Shown: positions 13,351 through 35,496, counted from the stretch's first letter. The stretch: DNA of 64,000 bases from Deltaproteobacteria bacterium RIFCSPHIGHO2_02_FULL_44_16 (GCA_001798185.1 MGRM01000006.1:28976-92975), one strand, 5' to 3'. Made by a program: numbers and translations. The notes: generated by a model from the letters alone, not told the origin.

Positions 13351-13361
13351 TAAGAGGATTA

Positions 13362-13507
13362 CCAAAACTGATTCACATTTTCTCTCGGGGTACAGACGCT
13401 GCGGTTACGCTCCTCGCGTCTTCTGTTTCCATCGGCGCGATCTTTTAAATTTGCATCGACGCGCCTCAGTCAAAGGCCCCCTGCGAAAAAATCTTCACCA
13501 GTTTTGG
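13362..13507 (+). repeat. intergenic repeat element, family 1, copy A (~146 nt; closing stem CCAAAACTG...CAGTTTTGG)
   Basis: About 90% identical to 35378-35496. Internal ACAGA(C/A)GC...GTCTTCTGT hairpin. Copy A has an internal insertion of about 27 nt. Confidence 0.6.
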
Positions 13508-13547
13508 TAAAGATAACAATTAAAACTTACTTACAAGGAGGAGAAGG

Positions 13548-13874
13548 ATGAAACGAATGTTCACGTGGTTAGGGGGAGTTGTGGTATCGATGTTTGCATC
13601 AAGTGCAGCTTTTGCTGAAGAAGCAGCAGCTCAAGCAAGCAGCGGAAACATGGGATCAGCATTGGCAATTGCTGCTGGATTTGGCATCGGCATTGCTGCT
13701 TTCGGTGGCGCGCTGGGACAAGGCAAAGCAGCAGCAAGCGCCCTTGAAGGCATTGCTCGTAATCCAGATGCTGCTGGAAAAATCCAGACACCGATGATTA
13801 TCGCATTGGCACTGATCGAATCACTCGTCATCTACGCTCTCGTCATTGCATTCTTATTGATGAACAAAATTTAG
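13548..13874 (+). CDS. atpE: F0F1 ATP synthase subunit c with an N-terminal presequence-like extension
   Basis: [16 protein letters not shown]...ARNPDA...IESLVIYAL is the c-subunit hairpin. Strong AAGGAGG Shine-Dalgarno before the 13548 ATG; the core c subunit would begin at about 13652. Confidence 0.85.
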
Positions 13875-13880
13875 TTCAGT

Positions 13881-13954
13881 GCGCTCGTAGCTCAGTGGAT
13901 GAGAGCATCTGACTACGGATCAGAAGGTCGCAGGTTCGAATCCTGCCGAGCGCG
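13881..13954 (+). tRNA. tRNA-Arg (anticodon ACG)
   Basis: Cloverleaf: acceptor GCGCTCG/CGAGCGC, anticodon loop CTACGGA, T-arm GCAGG-TTCGAAT-CCTGC. CCA is not encoded. Confidence 0.85.
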
Positions 13955-14068
13955 CAGAAAATTTGGCGCAGACAAATTTTCCCCGACGAACGAAGAACGT
14001 CAACGAATAACGGCGCCAAATTTCGTTTTTCGCTCACGTAATTCGTTCTTCAAGAAGAGAAAGTTCCT

Positions 14069-14527
14069 TTGTTATACAAAGCAACACTCATTGAGTTTAC
14101 TCAGGCCTTCAAGGGCAGAAGAACATGGCTGCACGCAGATGTGGATGAGTCGGTTTCCCACTATCCCGGTGATCATGATTCAGATGCCATACACGTGGGA
14201 GTTTTTTTCAAACAAACCCTGTTCGTAGGAATCGGCTCATTATTGCCGGATTCCAATCATAAGCTCGTACGTCCAGGTGCTTGGCGTGTGCGTGGCATGG
14301 CGATAGCGCCGGAACATAGGGGGCACGGAGCTGGCGCTGTTTTGATGCAGCATCTGCTTGCCATAGCGAAGCAGAAAGGTAGGAGCGGATTGTGGCTAAC
14401 CGGTCGCGAAGATTCCACCGGGTTTTACAAAAAATTTGGTTTTGAGACACAAGGCAAACCGGTTTCGCATGTTGTTGGCAAACTTTTTTTTATGCAAATG
14501 TCTTTATCGACAAAAACGTCCGAATGA
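14069..14527 (+). CDS. GNAT family N-acetyltransferase
   Basis: VRGMAIAPEHRGHGAGAVLMQHLLAIAKQKG is acetyl-CoA binding motif A. Confidence 0.75.
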   Translation: MLYKATLIEFTQAFKGRRTWLHADVDESVSHYPGDHDSDAIHVGVFFKQTLFVGIGSLLPDSNHKLVRPGAWRVRGMAIAPEHRGHGAGAVLMQHLLAIAKQKGRSGLWLTGREDSTGFYKKFGFETQGKPVSHVVGKLFFMQMSLSTKTSE

Positions 14528-14722
14528 TCATAAAAAATCAGGCCGCCAGCTTGGCCATTTCAGCACACACCGCTCTAAAATCGTCGCCGAGCACGCAATC
14601 TTTATATCGAAATCCCAAAGCTCACCTTAAATTTCTCTTGCGACTTCCAATAAAATATGAGTAAATTTCGCTCTATCACAAAAAACTCATGTGTTTTTTA
14701 CGATAAGGATTAAAAAATACAT

Positions 14723-15859
14723 ATGGAAAGATATATTAAACAAGGTGTTTTCAAGGATTTAAACAGAAAAATGGTTTTTGTCGGTGGTCCACGGCAAGTG
14801 GGAAAAACAACCTTTGCAAAGAACCTCTTAGAAACCTGGCCAGATCAACTCTCTTCAACCGTGCAACGTTATTATAGTTGGGATGATGATCGTGATCGCG
14901 AATTTTTGCTCGCTAAACAGCTCCCTTTTTCTCCTGGTCCAGTCATCCTCGATGAACTGCACAAATATCAAAGATGGCGTTGGCTTCTCAAAGCACTGTA
15001 TGACAAGCGGGGAAATGAGTTGCAGATTTTAGTGACGGGGAGTGCAAAGCTTGATTATTACCGACGAGGGGGCGATTCTCTTCAGGGACGATATCATTAT
15101 TACCGCCTCCATCCCCTTTCGCTCAAAGAACTCTCTTCGCAAACAACATCATCGCTTCGCGATCTGTTGATGTATGGCGGATTTCCCGAACCTTTCTTTT
15201 CAGCTTCAGAAACAGAAACGAGACGTTGGAGCCGAGAATACCGGTCTCGTGTCCTGCGCGAAGAGCTTCGAGACCTTGAAAAAGTGAATGATATTTCGCT
15301 GATCGAACGGATGGCGATACGCTTGCCGACGCTTGTTGGAAATCCTCTTTCACTCAATGCTCTGAGAGAGGATTTGCAAGTGTCGCATCAAACCGTCGTA
15401 CGCTGGATGAATATGCTCGAACGACTCTACAGTATTTTTCGCATTTATCCCTTCGGAGCTCCCCATATTCGCGCCGTAAAAAAAGAAGCAAAACACTACC
15501 ACTTTGATTGGGCACAAATTCCGGAAACAGGATTTCGTTTTGAAAATATGATCGCCTGTCACCTTTTGAAATGGTGCCATTTTTTTGAAGATACCGAAGG
15601 ATGGGACATGGATCTTCGATATTTTCGAGATACGGATAAACGAGAAGTCGATTTTGTAGTGCTCAAAGAACGAACACCGATCCTTTTTGTGGAGTGTAAA
15701 ATATCTTTTCAGGAAGCAAGCGGTCATTTGAAGTATCTCTCCAGAAAGTTTCCCGGTGTCGAGGCTGTGCAGATTCACTTCGACGGGGACGAAGATATCA
15801 AAACGGATGAGGGTATTCGACTTTGTCCAGCAGCAACATTTTTGAAGCGCTTTGTTTGA
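14723..15859 (+). CDS. ATPase, AAA+ superfamily (AAA_14/DUF4143-type)
   Basis: Walker A GGPRQVGKTT and Walker B ILDELH. Paralogue of 37072-38238. Confidence 0.75.
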   Translation: MERYIKQGVFKDLNRKMVFVGGPRQVGKTTFAKNLLETWPDQLSSTVQRYYSWDDDRDREFLLAKQLPFSPGPVILDELHKYQRWRWLLKALYDKRGNELQILVTGSAKLDYYRRGGDSLQGRYHYYRLHPLSLKELSSQTTSSLRDLLMYGGFPEPFFSASETETRRWSREYRSRVLREELRDLEKVNDISLIERMAIRLPTLVGNPLSLNALREDLQVSHQTVVRWMNMLERLYSIFRIYPFGAPHIRAVKKEAKHYHFDWAQIPETGFRFENMIACHLLKWCHFFEDTEGWDMDLRYFRDTDKREVDFVVLKERTPILFVECKISFQEASGHLKYLSRKFPGVEAVQIHFDGDEDIKTDEGIRLCPAATFLKRFV

Positions 15860-15878
15860 TCCTGCTTGAAGCAAATAT

Positions 15879-15900
15879 GGCGTGGCAATCCTGCCGTGCG
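15879..15900 (+). repeat. degenerate copy of the tRNA-Arg 3' end (putative att remnant)
   Basis: AATCCTGCCGTGCGCGCAAAGAAATTT versus the tRNA 3' end AATCCTGCCGAGCGCGCAGAAAATTT. Confidence 0.5.
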
Positions 15901-15926
15901 CGCAAAGAAATTTTAAGTATTAAAAC

Positions 15927-16640
15927 TCATCTGTCTTGTTGCGTTTTTTTCAAACACCTTTTTCGCCAACCATCCCCGTGAGAAAAACCAAAAACTTCTG
16001 CTCCAAGACAGAGGTCGCGTTGCATGCGGGTGTCATAGGTGTCGGAAGAATCAAGAAACAATCGAATTTCGTCTGCAGTGACTTTTCCGTCATTCTTGCC
16101 TTTTTGCGCTTCAGCATTTGCGTCGTTTGGTCGCTTTGCCTTGTCAATTCTTGTGAGGTAATCAACTTTTATAGGGAGTTTGGAACGATATGATACGAGG
16201 CCGTTAAGGGCAGCAATGATGTCGTCTCTTATATCAAATTTGTTTTGGGCAGTGATACCTCTGGAAAGCCTGTCCACTTCACGAACTTTACCGATCATGT
16301 GGAGAACGATTTTTAGAGGAGGAGAAAATTCATCGTTGAATTGAAATGCTTCATCGAGCGAAAGCTTTCGATCTCCATCTCCAAAGAATGATTCATACGT
16401 ACGAAGCGCTGAAAAAGTTCCCGCTGGTGCGGAGGGAAATTTTTGTTGAAATGTTTCAGCATTTTTCAGGCTTATCCCCTCAACGCCTGTGTACTGCGTA
16501 AGGTCACTTCTAGAAAGATAGCCATCTGATTGGCCGGGACGTCTTTTCCCATTTACTCCATCAGGTGCTTTATCAAGCACATCAAGCATCGATGCAAACT
16601 GTCGGATAACGATATCAACCATTGGGTTTCCTCCATGCAT
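15927..16640 (-). CDS. hypothetical protein
   Basis: 237-aa ORF. No recombinase or other motif found. Confidence 0.3.
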   Translation of the reverse strand: MHGGNPMVDIVIRQFASMLDVLDKAPDGVNGKRRPGQSDGYLSRSDLTQYTGVEGISLKNAETFQQKFPSAPAGTFSALRTYESFFGDGDRKLSLDEAFQFNDEFSPPLKIVLHMIGKVREVDRLSRGITAQNKFDIRDDIIAALNGLVSYRSKLPIKVDYLTRIDKAKRPNDANAEAQKGKNDGKVTADEIRLFLDSSDTYDTRMQRDLCLGAEVFGFSHGDGWRKRCLKKTQQDR

Positions 16641-16821
16641 TCTCGAATCATAATCGACCCTCTCTTAAAATAGTTGCTCCTTTTATCTTCTCGAGAAGAC
16701 TGATTTCAAAAAGATTCCAACAAGTTAGATGAAAAAAAGATTTTTAAAATGATTCTTGAAGAGAGAACGAATCTGCATCATATTCTGCGCAACTTCTTGG
16801 ACGCAATCACGATAAACGGAT

Positions 16822-17283
16822 ATGGCTGATAAAGTTCAAAATACAGTCATCATCGCAACAACCCTTCCTCCTCGTCAGGAACCAATATCAATCGAGGTTC
16901 CCAATGCCTTTACAGGAGAGCTCCAACAACAACCAACTCCTGAACAATGTCTTCAAATTTGTCAAAATGCTCTGGCGCAAATAAAAAAATTACGACTTCC
17001 AAATACTCCACCAGGGAAACTTCTCTCGCTTCCAGCTTTTGAAGCTTTGAGTTTTCCCGAGATACCAGTCGTACTAACGCCAGAGGATTTTTATGAATGC
17101 TTGCGCGGTCACCCCCAATTTACTCAGATCAATACATCTACTCAGGCCAATGTAGCAGATACTTCAGCACAGATTTGCTTTGGAATCAGTAAGGTACCCG
17201 AACCTCGGGAACCTGATCTCTTCCCTTTGAAAGATTTGCCCATAAGAGAAGTGCATCCGGAAAGAAAAAAAGAGGGAAAATGA
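16822..17283 (+). CDS. hypothetical Pro/Gln-rich protein, overlaps the subtilase start by 4 nt
   Basis: ATGA overlap with 17280. Confidence 0.3.
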   Translation: MADKVQNTVIIATTLPPRQEPISIEVPNAFTGELQQQPTPEQCLQICQNALAQIKKLRLPNTPPGKLLSLPAFEALSFPEIPVVLTPEDFYECLRGHPQFTQINTSTQANVADTSAQICFGISKVPEPREPDLFPLKDLPIREVHPERKKEGK

Positions 17284-20200
17284 TTTCACACTTGTTTCAA
17301 AAACTGAGTCTTTATTTTTTCCTCCTCTTCTCCATCTCATGCGGATCAGGATTGATGTTTGACGAGGAACAAAATCCTGAAGTAGTTGAAGATATCTCTT
17401 CTGCAGCTGACGAACCTGTCTCCATGACGGCAAAAGACATGATTCCCTCAACGGAGGCAGATTTCTCCCTCAACACGGTCATCGGCATTGAAACCTCCAA
17501 TCGTTTTTTGGCGGTTGCCCTCAAGCTTGAGGCAACGGATCAAGATTTTAGAGAAATCCAGACAAGCGTCCCTGAGTGTCGTGTGGGAGGCATGGTTCCT
17601 CTGGCAAAAATATTTCAGCTCGATTGCCAGTCGATCGTAGGCAACTTTGAGCAACTGAAAACAATACGCGATCGACTTGCGTCTCATCCAAAAATTTTAG
17701 CTGCAGCATTTGATTCAAGGGTTCATGGGAACTCTCTTCCTCCACATCCTCCAACGGTCTACCGAAACTGGAAAGATCCAAGTGGCCCAACATGGGGGCT
17801 TCGGGCCATCGGTGCTCCGCAAGCTTGGAGTCTCAATAATCAACTCAAAAAATTGAACCGCCCTCTGACGGAAGTCATGGTCATCGATATCGGCTTTTAT
17901 CCTCATCCCGATCTTCTTCATCTTACTTCCATCGGAACTTCTGTTACGGAAACGTGTCCCCATCCTGCCGGCGCATCAGGTCTCGATAGGTGCGAGCATG
18001 GAACACTTGTCAGTGGGATCATTGGAGCGAATTGGGAGAACAAAAAAGATGTGGTGGGAGTCAGTCCTTTTGTCAACGTGCAGGCAGCGGACATAAGTTT
18101 GTTTGATGATCCAAATGCTTCAATAGGAGATTTTAGTGCTCCAAGCTTTCTTGACGTGGCCTCTGCAATTTCTGTTATTCATATCCTTCCATCCCGCCCT
18201 CGGATTGTAAATATGTCCATCAGCGATTTTCCCGATTGGAATACTTCCTGTTTTACCGTTCCAGGTTCTTCTCGCAAAGCTCGCTGTGACCCGCGCTTCA
18301 TCAATCGCGTTCAGGATGGTGATGCCTGTGATCCGCATCTGGTGGAACAGGAGATACAAAGTAAGGCAAACATATTTGCACAAGTTATTGATCAATTGAA
18401 CTTTAACTCTCCCAAAACTTTTTTTGTGGTTTCAGCTGGAAACGAATCGGGAATCGACTTTGCGCCAACCGAAATTTACTGTTCCGCTCAATGCGTCTCG
18501 GGAGGATCATGCCTCAAAAAAGGACTTGGCAATTTTCCTGCGGATTTGAATTCCTCCTTTACGAATGCCTTAATTCATCTTCCTGCAGGACAACATGGAA
18601 TCGTGGTGGAGGCGCTTCAACCACTACGAAATCGATCTGCCTACAGTAATGTTGATAGCGGCGGTGTCTTTGCTCCAGCTGATGAAATCGCAAGCCTTGG
18701 GAAGAGTGGCAATACTTTCACTACTGTCATTCGTCCCTATGGCGGAACGTCGAGCGCCGCTCCTCACGTCAGTGGAGCAGCTGCCTTTTTGCTCGCAATT
18801 GAACCTGAGTTAAAGAATCAGGATATCAAGATTCTTTTAAAACAAAATATTGGAGGATTTTCCTGCGCCACAGCTCTTTCTCAAGCTGGAACATCGACCG
18901 CCACCATGGTCAATCTCTTCAAAGCTTCGCACTGCATTGATCTTCTTCTTCGTTTTCAAAATCCTACCGGCCGTCTCAGTGTTGGAGAGATGTATGCAGA
19001 TGTCAGCGATGGAAGTGCTGATGGAAATGAAATCATTCCTCTTGATGACAACAGCTCTCCCATTTCCAACCGTTATCATGTTCCGACCTGGGGTGATGAT
19101 GTCATTTCCATTCGCGACTTTCGTGTCTTGCGTGATCATCTTCTGCTTCATGAAGATGTTTCTTATCAATCTTCTGCGCAGGTTGTTGCCGCTCTTGCCG
19201 CCCAGAGCGATCGCCTTGATCTGAATGAAGATCTTGAAATCATCGATCTCACTTTTAATCCCGATGGAGAAAACTACTCACGCGCTGATTTTAATGGAGA
19301 CGGGAAAATCAGCAGTTCAGCAACAACCTCTTTTGCGGGAAATCAACTCACTGATCTCGATGTTTTTCTTTTAAGTTACCGAAAAAATAGGGGCTATCAA
19401 AACGATCTTCCGTCATGGCCACCTGATGCTCTTGCGGGACTTTTGAAATCAGCAGATATCTGGATACGTCCGGATAGAGGTGTTGGAGATCTTGAAATCG
19501 AAATACAAGGAGATAGGGGAGTGATAGAGCCTGCTGATGTAAGTCCGCTCCGAGGAATTCGCATTCCATCGGGAACAACTGAGGCTGTTCTCACCACTCC
19601 AAGGCTTCTGAATCCAAAACTGCTTGTCACACAAGATTGTGATGATGTCCCGCGTCAAACAACGTATGAAATAGCACTGAATGATCTTGCACCTGGAGAA
19701 GACAGAGTCGTTCCGATTCCCACAAAAAACTGCAGCCGCTGGACGAGAAGGCGTGATGCCCCGAGCGGTAATCCGCGGTCTGTGGCCGTCGATTACAACG
19801 GCGGTGCTCAGACCATCAACATGGAAGAGCATCAATTCTTCCCCCCTTCCGGTTCATTTCCTGCCTTTGATGTTCTTTGGGACACCGACATCGATTGCGC
19901 TGCCAATACCTATACGAAAGTTGAATATGTCAATGGTCGGCCGAATAATCGACACTTTTTTTCGAACTACAGTCCCGGATGTCCCGTGCCTGATCTCCCC
20001 GGACTTCAGAGGGCCAATACCTTTAACGTTCACATAAGCTGCGACGGAGGATTTCAGAATAATCTCACTTTCACTCAGGATGACGGACAAAGCTATTCGT
20101 ATACTTTGCCCAATGGGGTAAGCGAAACCTATCAGTGCATCGGGTGCCAACAACCCGACCTCTCACAAGCCTGTCACTGCGATCCCTCGCTTGCTGTGGG

Positions 20201-20366
20201 AAGTCTTGATCCATCCTTTATTAGCTGTCCCACATGCACGAACTGCATCCCGGAATTTCCTCGGCACCGGTGCACCTTCCAGAAGACCGTCGGTATACGA
20301 GCACTCGAACCGATCTGGTCCTTTTATAAGGAATTGTGGGCAGTCAGCTGTACTCCGCTTCCTTAA
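17280..20366 (+). CDS. subtilisin-like serine peptidase (S8 family) lipoprotein with a C-terminal Cys-rich extension of about 600 aa
   Basis: Lipobox FSISCGSG. Catalytic triad contexts VIDIGF (Asp), HGTLVSGIIGA (His) and GTSSAAPHVSGAAA (Ser). Confidence 0.85.
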   Translation: MISHLFQKLSLYFFLLFSISCGSGLMFDEEQNPEVVEDISSAADEPVSMTAKDMIPSTEADFSLNTVIGIETSNRFLAVALKLEATDQDFREIQTSVPECRVGGMVPLAKIFQLDCQSIVGNFEQLKTIRDRLASHPKILAAAFDSRVHGNSLPPHPPTVYRNWKDPSGPTWGLRAIGAPQAWSLNNQLKKLNRPLTEVMVIDIGFYPHPDLLHLTSIGTSVTETCPHPAGASGLDRCEHGTLVSGIIGANWENKKDVVGVSPFVNVQAADISLFDDPNASIGDFSAPSFLDVASAISVIHILPSRPRIVNMSISDFPDWNTSCFTVPGSSRKARCDPRFINRVQDGDACDPHLVEQEIQSKANIFAQVIDQLNFNSPKTFFVVSAGNESGIDFAPTEIYCSAQCVSGGSCLKKGLGNFPADLNSSFTNALIHLPAGQHGIVVEALQPLRNRSAYSNVDSGGVFAPADEIASLGKSGNTFTTVIRPYGGTSSAAPHVSGAAAFLLAIEPELKNQDIKILLKQNIGGFSCATALSQAGTSTATMVNLFKASHCIDLLLRFQNPTGRLSVGEMYADVSDGSADGNEIIPLDDNSSPISNRYHVPTWGDDVISIRDFRVLRDHLLLHEDVSYQSSAQVVAALAAQSDRLDLNEDLEIIDLTFNPDGENYSRADFNGDGKISSSATTSFAGNQLTDLDVFLLSYRKNRGYQNDLPSWPPDALAGLLKSADIWIRPDRGVGDLEIEIQGDRGVIEPADVSPLRGIRIPSGTTEAVLTTPRLLNPKLLVTQDCDDVPRQTTYEIALNDLAPGEDRVVPIPTKNCSRWTRRRDAPSGNPRSVAVDYNGGAQTINMEEHQFFPPSGSFPAFDVLWDTDIDCAANTYTKVEYVNGRPNNRHFFSNYSPGCPVPDLPGLQRANTFNVHISCDGGFQNNLTFTQDDGQSYSYTLPNGVSETYQCIGCQQPDLSQACHCDPSLAVGSLDPSFISCPTCTNCIPEFPRHRCTFQKTVGIRALEPIWSFYKELWAVSCTPLP

Positions 20367-20413
20367 AGAATCATTGTTCTTTCCCATGTGCTGTCCGAAG
20401 GAAACGATTTCCT

Positions 20414-20495
20414 ACAGACATTTTGTCTGCGATTACTCTTAATTTTACAGACATGTCGTCTGTATTTTTATGTTATTTACAGACACTTTGTCCGT
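20414..20495 (+). promoter_or_regulatory. array of three palindromic operator-like sites (ACAGACA-N2-4-GTCTG) at 32-33 bp spacing
   Basis: acagacattttgtctg at 20414, acagacatgtcgtctgt at 20447, acagacactttgtccgt at 20479; upstream of the TIGR02147-like gene. Confidence 0.5.
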
Positions 20496-20537
20496 AAAAT
20501 ACTTGCGCTTGTTTTCAAAGAGCGTAGAGAAATAGTC

Positions 20538-21386: not shown

Positions 21387-21396
21387 AAAGGGAGGA

Positions 21397-22686: not shown

Positions 22687-22692
22687 TGTTCT

Positions 22693-23423: not shown

Positions 23424-23467
23424 TTTTCATATTCTATCTCTTTATTCAACGATTCTTTATTGAGCCC

Positions 23468-24043
23468 TCAATTGCTGATCTTGCCATGATTGCTTCTGCC
23501 TTCAAGTATCTCCTCTAATGCATACAATGTTTTCTGAGGAATACGGTCGAGGGGGTAATAGTGCTGAATGACGTCGAGCGCTTGCTGATAAGAATCGATA
23601 TTCAGATATCGTAATAAAAAACGGACATCCTCGATATCGTAAAACTCTTCTCCAATACGCATCGCTAAACATTTCATGGCGAGAAGATATTCTGGCTTTG
23701 CTGTATAAACCCGAAGATGACTGAGCTCAAGATAAGGGGCATATTTTCCTTTATCAGATAAGTATCCTTTTACGGCATCGTTCAACCAGTTCCCATCAAG
23801 ATTCATCTGATGTGCGACACGGAGAGCAGCTTGACGCATTTTTGCTGCAGGTTCAAAAAAACCATCAATGTCTTTTGTGGACGAACGAACTTTAAACACG
23901 AGACACATCACAGCGCCACCTACAAGATAAAGCTCACCTTGTTGATCGTCGCGTTTGAGTTCTTCATTTAAACGCTCAAATAATTTTTCTATGTCGTGTG
24001 AAGAGAGCGCCATCTCTAGATCCTCCCAAAAATCAGATGTCAT
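23468..24043 (-). CDS. nucleotidyltransferase-fold protein (second, larger NTase)
   Basis: LVGGAVMCLVFKVRSSTKDIDGFF is a GG-x13-DID NTase signature. Confidence 0.5.
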   Translation of the reverse strand: MTSDFWEDLEMALSSHDIEKLFERLNEELKRDDQQGELYLVGGAVMCLVFKVRSSTKDIDGFFEPAAKMRQAALRVAHQMNLDGNWLNDAVKGYLSDKGKYAPYLELSHLRVYTAKPEYLLAMKCLAMRIGEEFYDIEDVRFLLRYLNIDSYQQALDVIQHYYPLDRIPQKTLYALEEILEGRSNHGKISN

Positions 24044-24114
24044 TCCCGCGAAGGCGGGAATCTACTTGTTTATCAGCTTTTCTGGATCCCCGCTTTCGCG
24101 AGGATGACATTCAT

Positions 24115-24722: not shown

Positions 24723-24790
24723 AGGAGAAAGTTCTTCCAAGCTGGTTCCCAAGTTGCGCTGTATGGCGCGGCGGCATGTTACATGCATCA

Positions 24791-25414: not shown

Positions 25415-25539
25415 TTTATTTCTCCCTTTTTGTTGACGTTTATCTCTCTTCGTCTCGAAGACCAGTGTAGAAGAATGACCTCTCATAACCAGCGGGGGAG
25501 ATGGGATTTATAAATGGGGAATTTCCCTAAGATTATTTC

Positions 25540-27064: not shown

Positions 27065-27166
27065 CTTGTAAGCTGTTGAAAACTCTGTGAAAAGAAGAAA
27101 TCGAAGAAGAAAAAAACCGCGGGGGTTTATTCCCGCGGTTTCTCTTTTCTCCTACCGTTGACTCTC

Positions 27167-30100
27167 CTATGGAAGGACAGTCGTTGGTTCAGACGCACTC
27201 GCCTGGTATGTATTCATTGGATCTACTAACCCCACAGAATCCCAGATATAGCTCGTGGTGTAGAGCCTGTTGGTTGTCGTCCCACTTGGGATTAAAGTCT
27301 CGTGCACCACATAAAGTGCTGTGTTTGGTTGCAGAACAACACTTGAGGTCATGTCAATCAACTGCAATCCAGCAGTACTATCATTGACCGTGTAATCACT
27401 CCCCGCTGTAAGAAGCACTGCTGTTGGGCTTGATGCATCCGATACAATGGAACCCGTGGCTGGATCTCTCACAGGAGCTGTGTCGAGATAAATTCTCGTC
27501 GAGACTGCTTGGAAGAGACCAGGAATTCCTAAAACAGTCGGACTCACAAGACCGAAACTATACTTCAGTCTATTCGAATTCACTCCCTCGTTGGAGAGTG
27601 ATTCAACATAAAGTACCGAGAAATACGTAACGTTACTGTTCACCGCAATCGGATCACTGAGATCAACAAGTTGGGTTTGAAGTGCCGAGAAGGCCGGGAC
27701 ATTGACACAATCCGAAGCCTGCACGCTCGCAGCATTGCTGCTCGTAACCGTTGCTGTATCGCAGTAAATTCCACTTGCTGCGCCAAACGGGATGCGGCTT
27801 ACCACAATAAAGGTCAAACTCTCTCCTGCGAGAACATTCATAGTGCTAGGAGACGTAACAACATTTCCGGAAAGCGCGCCGACCGCACCGTTCAAATTCG
27901 AACTCACGTAAATAACCTGCACATTGGCAGCAGAATTCAAACCGAGAACATCGCTGATGACAACGTTTTGAGCAGGAGCACTGCCGCTATTTTGCACGAC
28001 GATCGTTGATGTATAGCTGGCACTTGGGATCACACTTTCTGGAGCGTTGACTTTTGTAATCTCAAGATTTGGCGTCGCTACGGTCAAACACGCGATATCG
28101 CTGCCAATCCCGATGGTCCCGGAAGTAGCCGAAAGGCTCGCAGTGTCACAATATATCCCATCAACTGATGCTTGAACTGTAAAGAGCATGGTCGATGTGG
28201 ATCCTGCAGCAAGATCGCCGATGTTGTTGTCAAAACCATCGCTGCTATTGAGCGTTCCGCTTGAAATACTGTTTATCTGGAATGGGGCCATGTCGCCGCT
28301 TGTAAGTTCATCGTGAACCATGACACCTGTCGCAGAGCCTGTACCACTGTTGATCACTCGCACGCGGAGTCTTGCAGGCATATTGGCTGATACAGTCATC
28401 GACTCGCCAAGACTCGTCACATCATCAGCAGCAACAAAGTCTTTGATGATCGATACATTTGATTCGAGAGCAGTAAAGCATGCCTCTGCACTCAGATCGA
28501 CTGGAGCCCACGAATTGTCACTATCACGATACAAAAGAATCTGCGATTTGTTGCAGTAAGTTCCGGGCGCTGTGACCGTGGCGGTGAAGGTGAGAATCTG
28601 CGTATTGTCCCCAGCAGGGGCAAGTTGAGATGGAAGCGCAAAGGAATATGTGAAACCATCACCGACTGCAGTACTCCCTGCAGGACGTGAGTTAAGCGAG
28701 TAACTTGCTTCTGCGCCTGATGACAAGATGTCACTCAGATCGATGTTGGTGGCGTCACCATTGCCAACGTTCTGAATTGTAACCGTCCAGGTGGCTGAAG
28801 CCACACCTCCAACGAGGTGCACGATATCCGAGTTAACGGTCTTCGTAATCTCGAGTTCCGGTGCTGGTGCAAATTTCTTGTAGAAGATCTGTTTTCCAAT
28901 CTCTTCTCCGTTGATAGTCGCTACAGCTGTAATGCGAGCTTCTGATCTTGCATCCGGTGAAAAGAGAGTCACCCAAGTGAAGCCATCGACAAATGGAGTA
29001 CCAATGCCGCTCTGGTTGTAGAGTGGGTATTCAGTTCCGATAAGAGGGAATCGTTCTGCGGTCAGTCGAGCATTATTCGTGCGCGTATCGGCCTGGTCAT
29101 CGAAAATTCCGTACCCAAGCGCGACTCTGTTATCATCAGATGTACCAAACTGCATGCTGTTGACTCTTCCAAACCACCACTGATCGATCTCCCAGCGGAC
29201 ATCGGCACCAATCACTGGACGAACAACCCCTGTGGAATCTGTGAAACCAACCCATGCGACAGCAAGATTCTGGGTAAAACTCGGAGCAGTTTCCATCTGC
29301 TCGATGGCCAAAGGTCTTCCGGGGTCACTCACCATGGAGGAAGTCAAATTGGCGGGAACAATCCCGTTTGGTTTATCTTGCTCCCAAGCGTAAAATACAA
29401 ATCGACCAGACTGGAGCGTGCTCGAGTCGATCGGAATAAGATTTCCCTGATCGTTGCGGTAGACTGCGCGCGGCGCCTCGGAGATAATTGGCGTTGCGAT
29501 GAGGACTAACGAAAGACTCGATGTATTGCCGGCAACAACATTGATTTGACCAACCGCATCGCCGAAAGCAGGCGCGGTTGCTGTCGCAACATACTGACCC
29601 GGCGCTAAATCGATGAGAAGCTGGTTACCGGTAAAAGTCTGTGTGAAACCATCTGGTCCTGTCACAACCACCGTAGCCGATGATGGATAGACGTTGATAT
29701 TGAGAGAACCGACTGTAGATTCCGAAACTCCCGCACTCATAGCAAGAGAGGTCGACGCAAGGATTAATGAAATACTCGAGATCTGACCAGCAGCGACATT
29801 GATTTGACCAACTGCATCACTGAAAGCAGGCGCGGTTGCTGTCACTCCATACAGGCCTGGAACTAAATTGGTGAAAAGCTGGTTCCCGGTAAAAGTCTGT
29901 GTGAAACTCTCTGGCCCTGTCATCACCACCGTGGCTGATGTCGGATGAACATTGACTTGAAGAGAACCAACTGCAGTGGCCGTTCCGAGAGAACCGACCG
30001 CCGAAGTTGTCGTTCCGAGAGGATCGCCCGGAGTTGTCGTTGCTCCTCCGCACCCCAAAAACGTCATGGCGCATATGAGCCCCACGATGAACCCTCTCAT
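27167..30100 (-). CDS. large surface lipoprotein with tandem Ig-like repeats and DUF11/CARDB-like domains
   Basis: Lipobox FLGCGG. Two 86-aa tandem repeats (SLQVNVHPTSATVV... and SLNINVYPSSATVV...). DUF11-like segments (TWTVTIQNVGNGDATN). Confidence 0.7.
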   Translation of the reverse strand: MRGFIVGLICAMTFLGCGGATTTPGDPLGTTTSAVGSLGTATAVGSLQVNVHPTSATVVMTGPESFTQTFTGNQLFTNLVPGLYGVTATAPAFSDAVGQINVAAGQISSISLILASTSLAMSAGVSESTVGSLNINVYPSSATVVVTGPDGFTQTFTGNQLLIDLAPGQYVATATAPAFGDAVGQINVVAGNTSSLSLVLIATPIISEAPRAVYRNDQGNLIPIDSSTLQSGRFVFYAWEQDKPNGIVPANLTSSMVSDPGRPLAIEQMETAPSFTQNLAVAWVGFTDSTGVVRPVIGADVRWEIDQWWFGRVNSMQFGTSDDNRVALGYGIFDDQADTRTNNARLTAERFPLIGTEYPLYNQSGIGTPFVDGFTWVTLFSPDARSEARITAVATINGEEIGKQIFYKKFAPAPELEITKTVNSDIVHLVGGVASATWTVTIQNVGNGDATNIDLSDILSSGAEASYSLNSRPAGSTAVGDGFTYSFALPSQLAPAGDNTQILTFTATVTAPGTYCNKSQILLYRDSDNSWAPVDLSAEACFTALESNVSIIKDFVAADDVTSLGESMTVSANMPARLRVRVINSGTGSATGVMVHDELTSGDMAPFQINSISSGTLNSSDGFDNNIGDLAAGSTSTMLFTVQASVDGIYCDTASLSATSGTIGIGSDIACLTVATPNLEITKVNAPESVIPSASYTSTIVVQNSGSAPAQNVVISDVLGLNSAANVQVIYVSSNLNGAVGALSGNVVTSPSTMNVLAGESLTFIVVSRIPFGAASGIYCDTATVTSSNAASVQASDCVNVPAFSALQTQLVDLSDPIAVNSNVTYFSVLYVESLSNEGVNSNRLKYSFGLVSPTVLGIPGLFQAVSTRIYLDTAPVRDPATGSIVSDASSPTAVLLTAGSDYTVNDSTAGLQLIDMTSSVVLQPNTALYVVHETLIPSGTTTNRLYTTSYIWDSVGLVDPMNTYQASASEPTTVLP
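29480..29995 (-). repeat. intragenic tandem repeat, 2 x 258 nt (~85% identity)
   Basis: cattgatttgacca... begins at 29539 and again at 29797; it encodes the duplicated Ig-like module. Confidence 0.6.
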
Positions 30101-30300
30101 AGTTCGCCCTCTATCTCTTCTCCATCTTCGTGATCTACTTTCATATTGCAACTGCGTATGTGTGTGGTTCTTCATTTTTGTTCTCCTTAGTTTCTGGTTG
30201 CTTTCATGGAGGGAGATTATGAAAGCATTGAAGGATGAACAATCGGGAGGAACTACATTTTTTACTGGGGAATTTCTCTACCAGAAAAGATGGAGGACAA

Positions 30301-30648
30301 TTATGGGAGTTTGCGAAGGGTGAGAATATGGTGATTTTCTTTTTTTTCTTCAGACTCAAACGAAAACCGACCTTCAGCAGCACTCATCACTTCGCTTCGA
30401 AGGGAACCGGTTGCTCCTTGTTTTAACGTTCCAGATAATTCGATGACATCTCTCACTTCTCGCACGATCGTCATATTTTCAATCAAGGATGAACGACGCA
30501 GCGCTCGCATCAGCGCGTCGACATCAGAAAAGTGATGTGACTCAAGAAGCAAAAGTGTAAACGAATTTTTTGTTTCGCCATAAACGTGGAGCGAAAGCAG
30601 CGACAAGAAAAACAAGAGAACAAAAGAAATGAAGCGCAGCTTCTTCAT
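30301..30648 (-). CDS. small secreted hypothetical protein
   Basis: Signal peptide (FISFVLLFFLSLLSLHVYG). Confidence 0.3.
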   Translation of the reverse strand: MKKLRFISFVLLFFLSLLSLHVYGETKNSFTLLLLESHHFSDVDALMRALRRSSLIENMTIVREVRDVIELSGTLKQGATGSLRSEVMSAAEGRFSFESEEKKENHHILTLRKLP

Positions 30649-30899
30649 GAGGAGATAAGCGAGAGTGAGGTGATACGTTCAAGTTCGATCATCGCGCGAT
30701 CTTCATCGTCGACAATCACCGCAAGCCCATTATCAATATCGACGGATTCAAGTTTTCCAATATAGCTCACTCCAAATGCAAGGATTTCTACTTTTCGACC
30801 AAGGGCTTCGATGAGTCCCCGAAGAAGTGGATCCTCGGCAACAGCGGCATCCATATCACTTTTCTTCTTCATGGTTCTCTCCTTCTTGCAAAATTCCAC
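30645..30899 (-). CDS. hypothetical small protein
   Basis: 84-aa ORF linked to its neighbours by 4-nt overlaps. Confidence 0.25.
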   Translation of the reverse strand: MEFCKKERTMKKKSDMDAAVAEDPLLRGLIEALGRKVEILAFGVSYIGKLESVDIDNGLAVIVDDEDRAMIELERITSLSLISS

Positions 30900-31896
30900 T
30901 CAGTTCATCGCCAAGCGGCAGTGATGTAATTTCTTTGACTGCTCGGTCTGGTTTTAATTCTCCTGAAAGAATGCGATGAATCGCATTACAAATCGGAAGC
31001 GTTAAATGATGTTTCACTCGCACGTCGTCAACTGCTTTTGCGGTGACGACACCTTCGGCAACCATATGTTCTCCTAAAACCTCTTTGGCGCTTTTCCCTT
31101 CTCCGAGAGCTCGTCCCACGGAATAGTTGCGTGAAAGAGGTCCCGTGCAGGTAAGCACAAGATCACCAAGACCCGACAGCCCTGCCATGGTCAGTCGCTT
31201 TGCTCCAAGGGCAATCCCTACTTTCATGGTTTCATACACGCCCCGAGTTACAATGGCAGCACGGGCATTTGCGCCAAGTCCCAAACCATCACTCATTCCA
31301 GCGGCAATGGCGATGACATTTTTTACCGCTCCACCGACTTGCACTCCAATCACATCATCACTGGTAAAAGGGAGAAAAGATTGTGTGCGAAAGAGATGTT
31401 GAATTTTTTCAGTCACACTTCGATCCTCACCCGCAATGACGACAGAGGTCGGAAGCCCTGCAGCCACTTCCTTTGCAAAACTCGGCCCAGAAAGAACAAC
31501 GCGCAACGATGAAGGATGATGAGGCAGAACATCATCCAGCACTTGACTCATCAGCTTCTGCGTTTTTGGTTCAATGCCTTTGGTACAACTGACAAACAAT
31601 ATATTCGGCAAAAGCAAGGGACTCGCTTTTTTCCACAATGCACGAAGAACATGGGAAGGGATCACAGAAACCACACACGAAACCTGACTGAGAGCCTCCT
31701 GAAGATCGGAAGTGACCTGAAGCGATGATGGTAAAAGAATGTCAGAAAGAAAAAGAGGATTTTTGCGATGACGTCGTACACCTTCGACGACCTCTGTTTC
31801 ATACGCCCAAAGGAGAACAGAGTGACCGGCATCAGCCAGATGTTTGGCAAGCGCCGTCCCCCAACTTCCAGCTCCAATAACCGCTATCTTTTTCAT
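30856..31896 (-). CDS. gpsA: NAD(P)H-dependent glycerol-3-phosphate dehydrogenase
   Basis: MKKIAVIGAGSWGTALA Rossmann N-terminus and GpsA-type C-terminal blocks. Confidence 0.85.
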   Translation of the reverse strand: MKKIAVIGAGSWGTALAKHLADAGHSVLLWAYETEVVEGVRRHRKNPLFLSDILLPSSLQVTSDLQEALSQVSCVVSVIPSHVLRALWKKASPLLLPNILFVSCTKGIEPKTQKLMSQVLDDVLPHHPSSLRVVLSGPSFAKEVAAGLPTSVVIAGEDRSVTEKIQHLFRTQSFLPFTSDDVIGVQVGGAVKNVIAIAAGMSDGLGLGANARAAIVTRGVYETMKVGIALGAKRLTMAGLSGLGDLVLTCTGPLSRNYSVGRALGEGKSAKEVLGEHMVAEGVVTAKAVDDVRVKHHLTLPICNAIHRILSGELKPDRAVKEITSLPLGDELSGILQEGENHEEEK

Positions 31897-32009
31897 CGCC
31901 ATGTATTCATTCACCAGAGAGAATTTTTTCATCCTAAATCACCGATGGGGATAGTCAACAATTCTTTCTCCTTGAGAACTTCATATCAGAATGATACTGA
32001 ACTACGTTT

Positions 32010-33011
32010 GTGAAACCGAAAAAATCCACACCTCGTTCCCTTCCTCTCACCGCATCTGAAGCTTTAGCAATGCTCTCCAGTATGTGGAAAGGAACCAAAA
32101 ATAATTCGATTCGATATGCTTTTTCACTTCTCAAAGAGACGCTCAAAGTCCAAGTCGAGCCCAAAGAAATTTCGGAAATCTCTGACGAAATTTCACAGCC
32201 TTCTTCCTTTCATATGGTTCGACTTCTCAATGAAGTGCTTTCCGAACATGATCATAAATTTTTAAAACGACAACTCACGTATCAAATATCAGCAGATGCT
32301 TCGCTTCCCGAACTTTCGATTGATATGGAGATGATCCGTTTTATTCTCGATCATCTTCTTTCCTTTATTGCCGCGAGATCTCCTCATCGGGGAAACATTA
32401 TGATTCGCGCCAATGAACGAACATTTAAAAATGAAGCGGGTATCGAAATTCTTCTCTCCGCTCCGGACGAACATCTTCATAAAAGTGATGGAACCGCTTC
32501 GCTTCGCGATCTTTACATTGCCCGCACATCCAACAGCAATACGAGTGTGCTGACGCTCTGTCGGCAATTCATGGTCAGTCAACGAGGGCATCTCTGGTGC
32601 GAGATTACCAAGAATCGTCGTGTCGATTATCATCTTTTTCTTCCCGTTGGCGCTTTTTTGCATAAAGGGACCAGCACCGCAGCGCAGACTTTTCAATATG
32701 ACATTCACATTAAAAACTTCATGCGGTTGAGAAAACATTTTGGCATTAAAAAAAGCGCTGCTTTTGTTCAACAAGTAGAACGAATGATTCAAGGAATGAT
32801 ACGTCATCCTGTCGACGTGGTCCTCTCTTCGTGCGAAGAAGGCATTATCACCGTAATTTATGAATCTGGCGCAAGCGGCGCAGAATCTCTGGCAAGCCGC
32901 ATTTCCAAACGTCTTTCGAATGAAACATTTCGTATCGGGAAAAAACTTATTAACGCGAATGTTCAATATTCATTGACTCCAATAGCTCCGCCCCAAAACA
33001 AAAAAACTTGA
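32010..33011 (+). CDS. hypothetical protein (possible degenerate HATPase-like region)
   Basis: Weak N-box-like LDHLLSFIAARSPHRGNIMIRA. Not confidently assigned. Confidence 0.3.
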   Translation: MKPKKSTPRSLPLTASEALAMLSSMWKGTKNNSIRYAFSLLKETLKVQVEPKEISEISDEISQPSSFHMVRLLNEVLSEHDHKFLKRQLTYQISADASLPELSIDMEMIRFILDHLLSFIAARSPHRGNIMIRANERTFKNEAGIEILLSAPDEHLHKSDGTASLRDLYIARTSNSNTSVLTLCRQFMVSQRGHLWCEITKNRRVDYHLFLPVGAFLHKGTSTAAQTFQYDIHIKNFMRLRKHFGIKKSAAFVQQVERMIQGMIRHPVDVVLSSCEEGIITVIYESGASGAESLASRISKRLSNETFRIGKKLINANVQYSLTPIAPPQNKKT

Positions 33012-33018
33012 GGTTGCG

Positions 33019-34749
33019 ATGAACATTCTTCTCTCTTTCCATGCTTTCTTCGAACCGTTCTGGAAAGAAACTGAGCTTCTCTTCTGCTTGATCTTTTTAT
33101 ATGCTTTGCCGCTTCTCAGACTCATCACTGCTCCTGTTTCATTTCGTGGAAGATTGTTTTTACCGATTGCTCGTATTTTAGGAACATGGGAGCGATTGAT
33201 TTCTCCTTTGCGTAAAACTTTTGGCATTATTTTTCTTGCGACAGCGCTTCTTTGGTTTAGCATCGACGGGTTTTCGTTCTCCAATACTTTTTCTCTCACC
33301 ATGCTTCCGATCATCCTCTTTCTCTTTGCCCTCACCTGGTACGCCCATGAAGAGCGAAGGCGATCTGTGTTCCATTTTCTTGAATTCGTCAGCTCTCATC
33401 CTCCCATGCATCCACGAGAATTTTTCGCTCTCCTTGCGTCTCTTTCAAGTCCTCTGCGATACCAGTTTCAAAAACCGGTGACGGTGGTCGTTCCACATTC
33501 CGTTGACTTTCGAAAAAAGGGAGGAACTTTTTTTCACTTTCCTCTTCTTTCAGGACTTTTTTCGACAATGACCCTTGCACGCATGCTCATGCTTTCCTCT
33601 CGCGTGAAAGGGAAAACATTTCTCCATAAAGTTGCTCCTGCCACCGTGATGATGTGGGGATTACGCATTTTGTACCTAACACGTTCGGCTCTCACGGTCG
33701 AAGGAGTCGATCGCCTTCAACAAAAACCGCGTTATGCTCTCTATCTTTTTAATCATGAAAGTTTTCTTGAATTTGCCATTGCTCCTCTTGTCCTCGGAAC
33801 TCGTCTTCCACGTTTTCTGCTCGCAAAAGATCATTTTCGAGACAATCCCCTTCTTTATCGCTTCTTGGGAATTGGGAAAGTCGCTGAAGCCCTCGATATG
33901 GTTTTTGTCGATCGTTCGAAAGTAAAAACGAAAGAAGAAAAAATTCTTCGCGCCCGAAAAATAAGCAAAGAAACGGTAAAAAAACTCCTCGATGATCACA
34001 TTCCCTTAGCTCTGTTTCCCCAAGGAACGCGTGCACGAAGCACCGTCACCGTGGATGGAAAAAGACTGGGTGCTGGATATTACACTGCCGGGAAACATGA
34101 CCGCTTAAGCATTGAAGGGGGACACATCAAAAAAGGAGTAGCATATATTGCTATCAATGCTGCGATTGAACTGCAAAAAAGAAAAAGCACAGAACCGGTG
34201 ACGTTTATTCCCATTGGCGTTACGGGAGCAGCTGTTGTTTGCCCGCGAAAAAGTTTTCGTGTGCACTATGGTGTCACCATTCATCTTCGTGTTGAACAAC
34301 CGCTACTCATTACGCCAGATATGGTTCGGAAACTCAAACTTCCTGAACGAGATGATCTCCCTTCGCATGAATATCAAGAAGAGATCAACGATCTGTTAAA
34401 ACGCATTGATCGCAGCCTCGTCCTCGCACTGAAACTTCACGGTGAATTGGAAGGACGATTTTTGGAGCTGGTACGCGAACGACGTGACCCGAACATGTTT
34501 GAAGAAATTTTTGTGGCGCTTCGTGAATGGCAGGGGAAAGAAGACAATCTTCTCTACGTCATTCTCGATTATATTTTCGCCACTCATCCCTCGAAGTGGC
34601 GTCCCTTCACAAATCAGTTAATGTATCTTCTTCTGAGTCAAGCACCGCGAGAACAGTTTGTGGAGTTGAAGCAGGCTGTGGCAGATGATCTCTGTCAGAT
34701 CAAAAAAAAAGAGACTTATCGCCGTCTTAATTTTCGTACGGTGTCGTGA
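33019..34749 (+). CDS. membrane-bound lysophospholipid acyltransferase-family protein (PlsC-like)
   Basis: N-terminal TM region; motif I variant LFNHESFLEF (H-x4-E); motif III FPQGTR. Confidence 0.55.
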   Translation: MNILLSFHAFFEPFWKETELLFCLIFLYALPLLRLITAPVSFRGRLFLPIARILGTWERLISPLRKTFGIIFLATALLWFSIDGFSFSNTFSLTMLPIILFLFALTWYAHEERRRSVFHFLEFVSSHPPMHPREFFALLASLSSPLRYQFQKPVTVVVPHSVDFRKKGGTFFHFPLLSGLFSTMTLARMLMLSSRVKGKTFLHKVAPATVMMWGLRILYLTRSALTVEGVDRLQQKPRYALYLFNHESFLEFAIAPLVLGTRLPRFLLAKDHFRDNPLLYRFLGIGKVAEALDMVFVDRSKVKTKEEKILRARKISKETVKKLLDDHIPLALFPQGTRARSTVTVDGKRLGAGYYTAGKHDRLSIEGGHIKKGVAYIAINAAIELQKRKSTEPVTFIPIGVTGAAVVCPRKSFRVHYGVTIHLRVEQPLLITPDMVRKLKLPERDDLPSHEYQEEINDLLKRIDRSLVLALKLHGELEGRFLELVRERRDPNMFEEIFVALREWQGKEDNLLYVILDYIFATHPSKWRPFTNQLMYLLLSQAPREQFVELKQAVADDLCQIKKKETYRRLNFRTVS

Positions 34750-35363
34750 TAATTATTGGTTTTAAAAAGCCCTGACCCAACCACGACCATATCAGCGCCA
34801 ACTTCATGCACTTCAGAAATATTTTCGAGATTTATTCCCCCATCCACTTCAATCAAAAAGGGGAGCTTGCGCTCCTTTCTATATTTCACCAGTAATTTTA
34901 CTTTTTCTAATGCTTCGGAGATAAGTCGCTGACCTGCAAATCCGGGGTTCACCGTCATCACGAGAATAAAATCAGCTTCAGGGACAAAGGGAAGAATTTT
35001 TTGAATAGGGGTTTCAGGGTTGATCACAGCCCCTGCTTTGCAGCCGAGTTTTTTGATTTTCGGAAGCACTTCCAAAAGATCACAGACTTCCAGATGGACA
35101 GACATCCAATCCGCACCTGCTTTTGCAAATGACTCAATAAATTTTTCTGGATGTTCGACCATCAAATGCACATCAAAAGGGAGTTTTGTAAGAGGTCGAA
35201 TGGATCTGACAAGATCTGGTCCCATGGTCAAGTTCGGCACAAAGTGCCCGTCCATGATGTCGATATGGAGAATATCTGCGCCAGCTTTTTCAACAGCGCG
35301 AATCTCTTCGCCAAGCTTCGAAAAATCAGCTACTAAAATGGAGGGTGCGATAAGTGGTCCCAT
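34716..35363 (-). CDS. rpe: ribulose-phosphate 3-epimerase
   Basis: MGPLIAPSILVADF...HIDIMDGHFVPNLT...VDGG blocks. Confidence 0.85.
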   Translation of the reverse strand: MGPLIAPSILVADFSKLGEEIRAVEKAGADILHIDIMDGHFVPNLTMGPDLVRSIRPLTKLPFDVHLMVEHPEKFIESFAKAGADWMSVHLEVCDLLEVLPKIKKLGCKAGAVINPETPIQKILPFVPEADFILVMTVNPGFAGQRLISEALEKVKLLVKYRKERKLPFLIEVDGGINLENISEVHEVGADMVVVGSGLFKTNNYHDTVRKLRRR

Positions 35364-35377
35364 TAATATCTCTCTTC

Positions 35378-35496
35378 CAAACTGGTTCACATTTTCTCTC
35401 GGGGTACAGAAGCTGCGGTTATGCTCCTCGCGTCTTCTGTTTCCATCGACGCGCCTCAGTCAAAGGCCCCCTGCGAGAAAAACTTCACCAGTTTGG
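35378..35496 (+). repeat. intergenic repeat element, family 1, copy B (~119 nt; closing stem CAAACTGG...CCAGTTTG)
   Basis: About 90% identical to 13362-13507. Lies between rpe and fmt, antisense to both. Confidence 0.6.

Follow-up and report, generated by a model that had tools for sequence, protein, structure and literature searches.

We analysed a 64,000-nt stretch of DNA from Deltaproteobacteria bacterium RIFCSPHIGHO2_02_FULL_44_16 (the window; positions are counted along the whole of it), which is contained in a 245-kb European Nucleotide Archive (ENA) metagenome contig and holds two copies of a short, stem-closed repeat, copy A between the ATP synthase genes atpB and atpE and copy B between fmt and rpe. 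As listed in Table 1, atpB, copy A, and atpE all lie on the plus strand, as the first-pass annotation had it when placing copy A in sense orientation upstream of atpE, and the atpB-atpE spacer, estimated there at about 200 nt, measured 197 nt (13351-13547), versus 20 to 43 nt in the five closest relatives whose AtpE aligns from Met1. Copy B had been described as lying between convergent genes and antisense to both. It is indeed antisense to them, but because the minus strand encodes both fmt and rpe, which follow def in tandem, it is situated inside one co-directional operon and not between a convergent pair. In the direction of transcription, copy B begins 6 nt past the fmt stop codon and finishes 13 nt ahead of the rpe ATG. 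The atp mRNA carries the plus form of copy A, and the def-fmt-rpe mRNA carries the reverse-complement form of copy B. The element proved to be multi-copy and sharply bounded, to occur at unrelated housekeeping loci, and to have its pairing maintained by compensatory substitutions.

The two copies in the window have the same plus-strand orientation and were 94% identical across 120 alignable positions; the pair had been recognized before at about 90% identity and with copy B starting at 35378, which is corrected here to 35377. The inverted terminal pair and the internal hairpin reported for each copy were both seen: the inverted arms of copy A are 32 nt each and 78% complementary, copy B is likewise closed by inverted ends, and hairpin Hc is present in both. 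Dinucleotide-shuffled controls folded much less well than either copy (z = -3.2 to -6.1). The alignments gave an indel of 24 gap columns, which the first-pass annotation had taken for a 27-nt insertion in copy A. The indel represents a 24-nt deletion in copy B, since nine other copies, described below, all measured 142 to 146 nt. Moreover, the lost segment is flanked in copy A by 10-nt direct repeats, one of which is kept in copy B, and this is the signature of a slipped-strand deletion. Copy B is thus probably a slipped-strand deletion derivative that has lost one of the hairpins, Hb.

Table 1. Coordinates of the repeat copies, their parts, the neighboring genes, and other repeat families (window positions unless another locus is named)
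Feature	Position	Strand	Remarks
Copy A, canonical long form	13362-13507 (146 nt)	+	Between atpB and atpE; covariance model R1, 165.6 bits
Copy B, 24-nt deletion derivative	35377-35496 (120 nt)	+	Between fmt and rpe; covariance model R1, 130.1 bits
Element end sequence			ACCAAACTGGTGAAGATTTTCTCGCAGGGG
Copy A terminal inverted repeat, left arm	13359-13390		Helices P1, P2, and P3 of the stalk
Copy A terminal inverted repeat, right arm	13479-13510
Internal hairpin Hc, copy A	13392-13427		ACAGACGC...GCGTCTTCTGT
Internal hairpin Hc, copy B	35406-35440		ACAGA[C/A]GC...GCGTCTTCTGT in both copies
Internal hairpin Hb, copy A	13434-13465		GGCGCGAT...ATCGACGCGCC; hypervariable loop; gone from copy B
10-nt direct repeats, copy A	13430-13439 (CATCGGCGCG) and 13454-13463 (CATCGACGCG)		24 nt apart; bracket the segment deleted in copy B
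Deletion junction, copy B	35444-35453		Single CATCGACGCG left
atpB, ATP synthase subunit a	12637-13350	+	PF00119; upstream of copy A
atpE, ATP synthase subunit c	13548-13874	+	PF00137; Shine-Dalgarno (SD) sequence AAGGAGGAG and start 41 nt past copy A
def	36426-36926	-	fmt and rpe downstream of def
fmt	35503-36429	-	PF00551 and PF02911; transcriptionally upstream of copy B
rpe	34716-35363	-	PF00834, 215 aa; called ATG at 35363; downstream of copy B
fam3 copy a	5311-5466	+	Stalk core C[GCA]GGG...CCC[GA]GAAA in common with the studied family
fam3 copy b	59528-59680	-	Termini differ from copy a, yet are mutually complementary
fam1	41768-41891 and 44050-44164		~120 nt, TTCAAAACTGA...GTTTTGAA; brackets gdh and a 239-aa open reading frame
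Fourth stalk family	L009 8130-8277; L112 3056-3205 (~3 kb past the window end)		148 nt, 94% identical; CGCAGG...CCGAGAG core
TGTCAT...ATGACA families	24038-24109; L014 2536-2607; L008 3374-3460; L016 6666-6796; L112 7718-7850; L010 6440-6511; L011 3556-3627

Copies were sought with an exact 21-mer from the element core, which gave 13 matches in 10 loci among Joint Genome Institute (JGI) metagenome contigs. After removal of duplicate loci, 11 distinct copies were obtained (2 in the window and 9 on JGI contigs), spread singly over at least seven contigs. Identity among them ranged from 82.5 to 98.3% (median, 91%), with sharp common ends ACCAAACTG...CAGTTTGGT. The core 21-mer had no exact match in GTDB species representatives or viral contigs, and blastn in distant mode found nothing similar in plasmid or phage collections. 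Three assemblies of the window's species were found to end at or inside the repeat, two at copy A (L005 and L006) and one at copy B (L099), as expected because assemblers stop at multi-copy repeats. As judged very roughly from 2 copies in ~81 kb of unbiased sequence, each genome would carry tens to low hundreds of copies.

The first-pass annotation had allowed that two copies only, without conserved structure, would amount to a chance duplication; at least 11 distinct copies, and a structure with compensatory changes, were found instead. A segmental duplication that arose once or by chance and belongs to no family does fit the immediate surroundings, in that two copies occur in the window and no further one was found in the rest of its 64 kb or in the ~17 kb of contig past its ends. 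Nine more copies on contigs of the same signature, the identical sharp boundaries, and the three assembly breaks, however, make this explanation practically negligible.

That the copies belong together was indicated by tetranucleotide composition. The pooled JGI carrier contigs matched the window signature at r = 0.985, compared with 0.96 to 0.99 for window quarters against the whole window and 0.57 to 0.87 for relatives at ~60% protein identity, and several other short repeat families were also common to the JGI contigs and the window's contig. Because of this tetranucleotide match and the shared repeat families, the JGI contigs are assigned to the genome of the window or to one very close to it. 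No gene was common to the JGI carrier contigs and the window. Horizontal transfer between distant hosts was also considered, since for either data source the best AtpB and HemE homologues were only 60 to 73% identical, and was rejected on the indistinguishable tetranucleotide signatures and the shared repeat families.

Fold prediction, which the first-pass annotation had proposed as a check, revealed a conserved structure with compensatory changes across the 11 copies. RNAalifold produced a consensus of 46 pairs, with 98.6% of cells occupied by standard pairs on the reverse-complement form versus 91.1% when the same pairs were read on the plus form. From the outside in, the stalk begins with P1 (10 bp) and continues, past a small internal loop, with P2 (9 bp) and, past an asymmetric 5'-GCA/5'-GA loop that is invariant, with P3 (four G-C pairs); these 23 bp are topped by three hairpins, Ha, Hb (its loop hypervariable), and Hc. 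Terminal helices 1 to 3 were conserved in all 11 copies. Eight of the 46 pairs showed changes on both sides, none of 500 column shuffles reached the observed values, and pairing fell to 42 to 49% when partners were slid by one to three columns. In P1, compensatory variants CTGGT/ACCAG, CTGAC/GTCAG, and CTGTC/GACAG were found, while three of the six Hc pairs carried compensatory changes, including ACGC/GCGT to CGGC/GCCG in L016 and A-U to G-C in L008. Conservation was highest in the stalk core and in the stems of Ha and Hb, and variability in the Hb loop (9 of 15 columns) and at the P1/P2 junction.

Coding and known RNA motifs were also examined. Six-frame translation of the element had no match among 5.8 billion proteins, and Rfam 15 gave no match on the element at the gathering threshold or at E values up to 5. 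A conserved small open reading frame (ORF; METEDARSV...) was dismissed, as its sole internal ATG is ACG in 3 of the 11 copies and the frame stops within the element. A kink-turn at the GCA/GA loop was dismissed by inspection, since the bulge-less strand has CA, not GA, beside the G-C helix.

Ten of the 11 copies are located between co-directional housekeeping operon genes, and the remaining one lies between convergent genes. Outside the window, copies occur upstream of hemE, between hemE and hemN, between a queD-like gene and queE, at nadE/rsmI and rlmH/polX, between a class II aminoacyl-tRNA synthetase gene (lysS) and lolE, and after a polyprenyl synthase gene. They usually begin 3 to 20 nt past the upstream stop codon and finish 12 to 57 nt before the downstream start, just before the SD sequence. 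No sigma-70-like promoter or intrinsic terminator was found in the element, the lone terminator-like match being at background level. Because it lies inside operons and has neither promoter nor terminator, the element must be co-transcribed in the polycistronic mRNA.

This location between stop codon and next SD sequence, and hence in the transcript, would suit a host-selected cis-acting RNA module that processes, stabilizes, or insulates between cistrons and for which spread is secondary. Pointing the same way, 8 of 10 operon contexts have the better-folding reverse-complement form in the mRNA, RNA folds reach z values of -5 to -6, and invariant G-U pairs and wobble-type changes are seen on the reverse-complement strand. 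The ~23-bp stalk also resembles the paired terminal inverted repeats (TIRs) of Correia elements that are cut by RNase III, and the effects of enterobacterial repetitive intergenic consensus (ERIC) elements depend on orientation (PMC10969869, PMC3184786). The two exceptions, copy A and L008, tell otherwise: they are transcribed in the opposite orientation, and their private stem changes (CTGGT to CTGAT and CGGGG to CAGGG) give A-C mismatches within the mRNA that contains them, yet wobble pairs on the non-transcribed strand, which argues against selection on the local transcript. Furthermore, the 8:2 bias falls short of significance (two-sided binomial p ~0.11), the host operons are functionally unrelated, relatives cope with the 20- to 43-nt spacers, and copy B persists despite the loss of a whole hairpin. 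A module of this kind, or a dedicated regulatory RNA as the primary explanation, is therefore unlikely. RNA-level side effects are nevertheless plausible, the analogies being the cutting of paired Correia ends by RNase III and the orientation effects of ERIC.

The preference for the reverse-complement strand was evident in several measures. RNA folds were stronger on that strand (-56 versus -43 and -52 versus -45 kcal/mol), and with DNA parameters it folded more strongly in five of five copies, by 2.6 to 7.8 kcal/mol. Within well-supported helices, about nine one-sided changes were wobble-compatible on the reverse-complement strand, versus two on the plus form. In addition, the strand bearing the plus form had a negative GC skew (C-rich) in 9 of 11 loci, including copy A and L008, with one neutral and one opposite, and the plus strand of the window itself was C-rich in seven of eight bins, independently of gene direction. 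Copy orientation tracked GC skew no less closely than transcription. The strand that folds better thus tends to be G-rich, the one exposed as lagging-strand template.

Occupancy of the same sites was then compared among relatives. The nearest AtpB outside the species is ~70% identical, and the best GTDB genomes (~60% AtpB) are uncultured metagenome-assembled genomes labeled 'Deltaproteobacteria/Pseudomonadota bacterium', with Bacteriovoracia, Bdellovibrionota, and Myxococcota next. The atpB-atpE spacer of the syntenic relative L103 (62% AtpB) is 125 nt of unrelated AT-rich DNA; in L109 (53% HemE), the hemE-hemN spacer measures 26 nt, and a plain terminator hairpin stands upstream of hemE. Covariance model R1 detected no copy in 29 loci from relatives. 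These data showed that the element is absent at the same sites in syntenic relatives. In the collection searched, there was no AtpB of 73 to 100% identity that would supply closer relatives for this comparison. Two further loci, L111 and L113 (ENA ERZ28563641, ANAN16-1), represent a slightly divergent strain of the window's species, in which several gene-call lengths differ.

Taken with the copies, the structure, and the assembly breaks, the empty sites bear out the earlier suggestion of a repeat akin to transposable elements of the miniature inverted-repeat type (MITEs) or repetitive extragenic palindromic (REP) sequences, in preference to a gene-specific leader, and support a new family of the MITE/ERIC/REPIN kind. 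With moderate confidence, we consider the element to be a ~144-nt non-coding, non-autonomous mobile palindromic repeat of the MITE/REPIN kind, which is co-transcribed and probably handled as a folded single strand.

A serious rival, though clearly the less probable of the two, is a classical MITE, that is, what is left of a DDE-transposase insertion sequence (IS) after internal deletion; the transposase would bind double-stranded TIRs and move the element by cut-and-paste or copy-and-paste. MITEs are defined by TIRs, target duplications, absence of a transposase, and a long stem-loop at the RNA level (PMC3184786). The imperfect 32-nt TIRs, the length of ~144 nt, the absence of an ORF, the multi-copy intergenic occurrence, and the near-invariant outermost 8 bp (CAAACTG/CAGTTTG) all suit such an origin, as do TA/TA flanks at copy A and L007 and TTAA/TTAA at L008. 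Target-site duplications, implied by the MITE comparison in the first-pass annotation, were looked for and were not consistent: 8 of the 11 copies lacked a direct duplication at their flanks, whatever its length. Instead of staying fixed, positions 12-13 and 16 of the arms covary, the interior hairpins covary too, and both folding and wobble tolerance are strand-asymmetric. Neither an IS with matching ends nor a transposase was found in ~133 kb.

Several observations weigh against a mobile element handled as a folded single strand. The genuine 32-nt TIRs and the TA/TA flanks at two to three copies are as in classical MITEs, while the flanks have no conserved 4- to 5-nt target of the IS200/IS605 type and the hairpin feet no REP-type GT[AG]G. 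No transposase, integrase, or Y1/HUH Pfam domain was found in ~81 kb of the window contig or in ~40 ORFs near the JGI copies, a scan of ~133 kb in total and a small fraction of a genome. The relatives with empty sites are just 53 to 62% identical in the flanking proteins. Neither presence/absence polymorphism nor an excision junction was seen among same-species assemblies, and mobility is therefore deduced from distribution only. As for the strand signals, GC skew is confounded with gene orientation, a leading-strand mutation bias of C to T and A to G would likewise yield wobbles on the reverse-complement strand, the counts are small (8:2, 9:2, and 9/11), and the two copies of a sister family, fam3, lie in opposite orientations within the window, both between minus-strand genes.

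On the favored explanation of a mobile palindromic repeat, the element would spread via a trans-acting enzyme encoded elsewhere in the genome. This enzyme would read the folded single strand, as do the HUH/Y1-type enzymes of REPINs and IS200/IS605 ends, rather than act as a DDE transposase on double-stranded TIRs. Single-strand handling appears more likely because there is no target duplication, because the reverse-complement fold is stronger and wobble-tolerant, and because that strand is usually found on the G-rich strand. IS200/IS605 elements act on single-stranded DNA at the lagging-strand template (PMC6006769), and REPINs form hairpins in which compensatory changes are common and are tied to Y1 transposases (PMC3116915). 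In mRNA, the stalk could serve as a double-strand RNase target or a stabilizer, as with Correia and ERIC elements, which would be a side effect and not the raison d'etre of the repeat.

Strand-specific folding would also suit a reading of the copies as integron-type attC recombination sites that separate gene cassettes, in an integron or in an array like CALIN (a cluster of attC sites lacking integron integrases). The attC R''/R' consensus is RYYYAAC/GTTRRRY, and the element termini ACCAAAC/GTTTGGT fit it at six of seven positions each. The stalk likewise leads from one paired box through an unpaired spacer to another, which has extra-helical bases, and ends in a variable top, and L009 is laid out as element-gene-element-gene-element. 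The neighbors, however, are core operon genes (atpB/atpE, fmt/rpe, hemE-hemN-hemY, queC-queE, nadE, and lysS), the copies are dispersed singly over at least seven contigs and not arrayed, no integrase was found nearby, and the sequence common to several families is the inner core and not the AAC/GTT boxes. An integron attC array was ruled out on gene content, and attC sites of any kind are a very improbable account of the repeat.

The region around the two copies has further features. A tRNA gene (13881-13954) begins 7 nt downstream of atpE, and in the syntenic relative L103 an island with a phage-type integrase, primase, and resolvase (6600-11683) directly follows atpE; these suggest that the region downstream of atpE is a recurrent integration hotspot. 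Two genes for AAA_14/DUF4143 ATPases (14723-15859 and 37072-38238) lie within 2 kb of the studied copies, and several such paralogues occur across the genome, among them L110 4348-5616 and L009 507-1853. At 29502-29976, two tandem 217-nt units, 80% alike, lie within a 1002-aa CLIPPER-domain ORF (27167-30175, minus strand); they represent the repetition of a protein domain and not a non-coding element.

The genome is rich in repeats, with at least six short families and about nine elements in ~81 kb (Table 1). The stalk-closed fam3 elements are ~155 nt long and 82 to 84% alike, their termini being TTCAAAACC/GGTTTTGAA in one copy versus ATCAACGGC/GCCGTTGAT in the other. The fourth stalk family folds at -68 kcal/mol (z = -5.6). 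The studied family, fam3, and the fourth family have a common core, C[GCA]GG...CC[GA or GAGA]G, in which CCGA is conserved, while the surrounding helices differ and are still complementary. Though unrelated in sequence, these families are of one build: a terminal helix leads to the asymmetric internal loop, which is invariant, and this to a G-C helix with variable hairpins on top. The pattern CGCAGG-N70-100-CCGAGA occurs three times in the window, in copy A and both fam3 copies, versus 0.16 expected by chance. In fam1, likewise stalk-closed and presumably the first dispersed family of the first-pass annotation, the apical hairpin differs between copies but remains paired. Two to three more short palindromic families with TGTCAT...ATGACA ends and GC-rich hairpin arms (e.g., GTCATCCCCGCGAAGGCGGGGATC) were also noted, and the pair formed by window 24038-24109 and L014 gave a sub-threshold Rfam match to WsnRNA46 (38 bits versus a gathering score of 65).

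The shared core is a hint of a single trans-acting partner able to read both structure and a loop motif. A candidate would be a Class-3-like HuH-Y1 enzyme or another structure-reading protein, recognizing the loop motif rather than a sequence end. It is a doubtful proposition that the three or more families of one architecture, together with the strand-specific folding and orientation of the studied family, are the footprint of an undescribed single-strand-specific mobilization system in an uncultured lineage near Bdellovibrionota, by which the families are co-mobilized. What is unusual is that target duplications are absent, that folding and orientation are strand-specific, and that several families of one genome have a core loop motif in common; these points are suggestive only.

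These repeats have practical consequences. Small palindromic repeats break metagenome assemblies, as in the three independent contigs here, inflate intergenic spacers, and may mislead annotation into calls of leaders or small RNAs; the present family accounts for the odd 197-nt atpB-atpE spacer, and covariance model R1 is usable for masking and strain typing. If the strand-specific signals hold genome-wide, single-strand (HUH-type) miniature elements would reach into a deep uncultured lineage and take an unusual multi-hairpin architecture there; if they fail, this is one more ordinary MITE-like repeat.

Among known systems, the element resembles MITEs in having TIRs, a length of 120 to 146 nt (below ~400 bp), no conserved ORF, and dispersed, mostly intergenic copies, and differs from them in the absence of a consistent flanking target-site duplication. 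ERIC elements (intergenic repeat units, or IRUs, of 127 bp) and YPAL are similarly imperfect palindromes of ~127 to 170 nt, transcribed, intergenic, often intra-operon, and present in either orientation, with ERIC effects on mRNA decay that depend on orientation (PMC3184786, PMC10969869). ERIC-type sequences, however, have TIRs, target duplications, and 5'-TA-3' on both sides (PMC3184786), whereas the element has no consistent target duplications or TA flanks, comes from an unrelated host lineage, and showed no similarity in sequence.

Correia elements of Neisseria (CREE) are also like the present family, being ~104 to 157 nt long with TIRs, occurring in long and internally deleted short forms, and being co-transcribed; their paired ends form a double-stranded RNA stalk that is cut by RNase III in Neisseria (PMC10969869, PMC3184786). 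The short Correia forms have a counterpart in the deletion variant copy B. In Correia elements, a TA target is duplicated and integration host factor (IHF) sites and promoter elements are present, whereas TA/TA was found at just 2 to 3 of the 11 copies here, together with no promoter matches and no sequence similarity.

With the miniature IS200/IS605 derivatives known as palindrome-associated transposable elements (PATEs), and with IS200/IS605 ends themselves, the element has in common the lack of target duplication, strand-specific folding, and the lagging-strand-template orientation (PMC6006769). Those elements have no TIRs, form separate subterminal hairpins at the left and right ends (LE/RE), and have their insertion point 3' of a tetra- or pentanucleotide that is fixed, while the present element has TIRs and its flanks share no target motif. 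Genes of the rare Class 3 HuH-Y1 group are flanked by high-copy 'atypical secondary structures' with a CnGA foot, of which Solibacter usitatus has ~600 copies, and which are known from Proteobacteria, Planctomycetes, and Acidobacteria (PMC6006769). The four stalk families here conserve CCGA within CCGAGA, although it lies 3' of the hairpin cluster and not 5' of a hairpin foot and from the organism no Class 3 gene is known, and the likeness is a lead, not a match.

REPINs and bacterial interspersed mosaic elements (BIMEs) are hairpin-forming REP doublets mobilized by RAYT (TnpA-REP, Y1 HUH) proteins. The element is not made of two inverted short REP hairpins (21 to 65 nt) but of one 23-bp stalk and three different hairpins, it has no GT[AG]G foot, and no RAYT gene was seen in the sequence examined. 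Like REPINs and BIMEs, it is non-coding, ~100 to 150 nt long, multi-copy, and extragenic, belongs to one of several families per genome, is predicted to form a long hairpin in single-stranded DNA or mRNA with common compensatory changes, and makes no target duplication (PMC3116915, PMC6006769). Absence of duplication, compensated hairpins, strand-specific folding, and lagging-strand coupling are together the combination described for HUH/Y1 systems, a parallel that is suggestive only.

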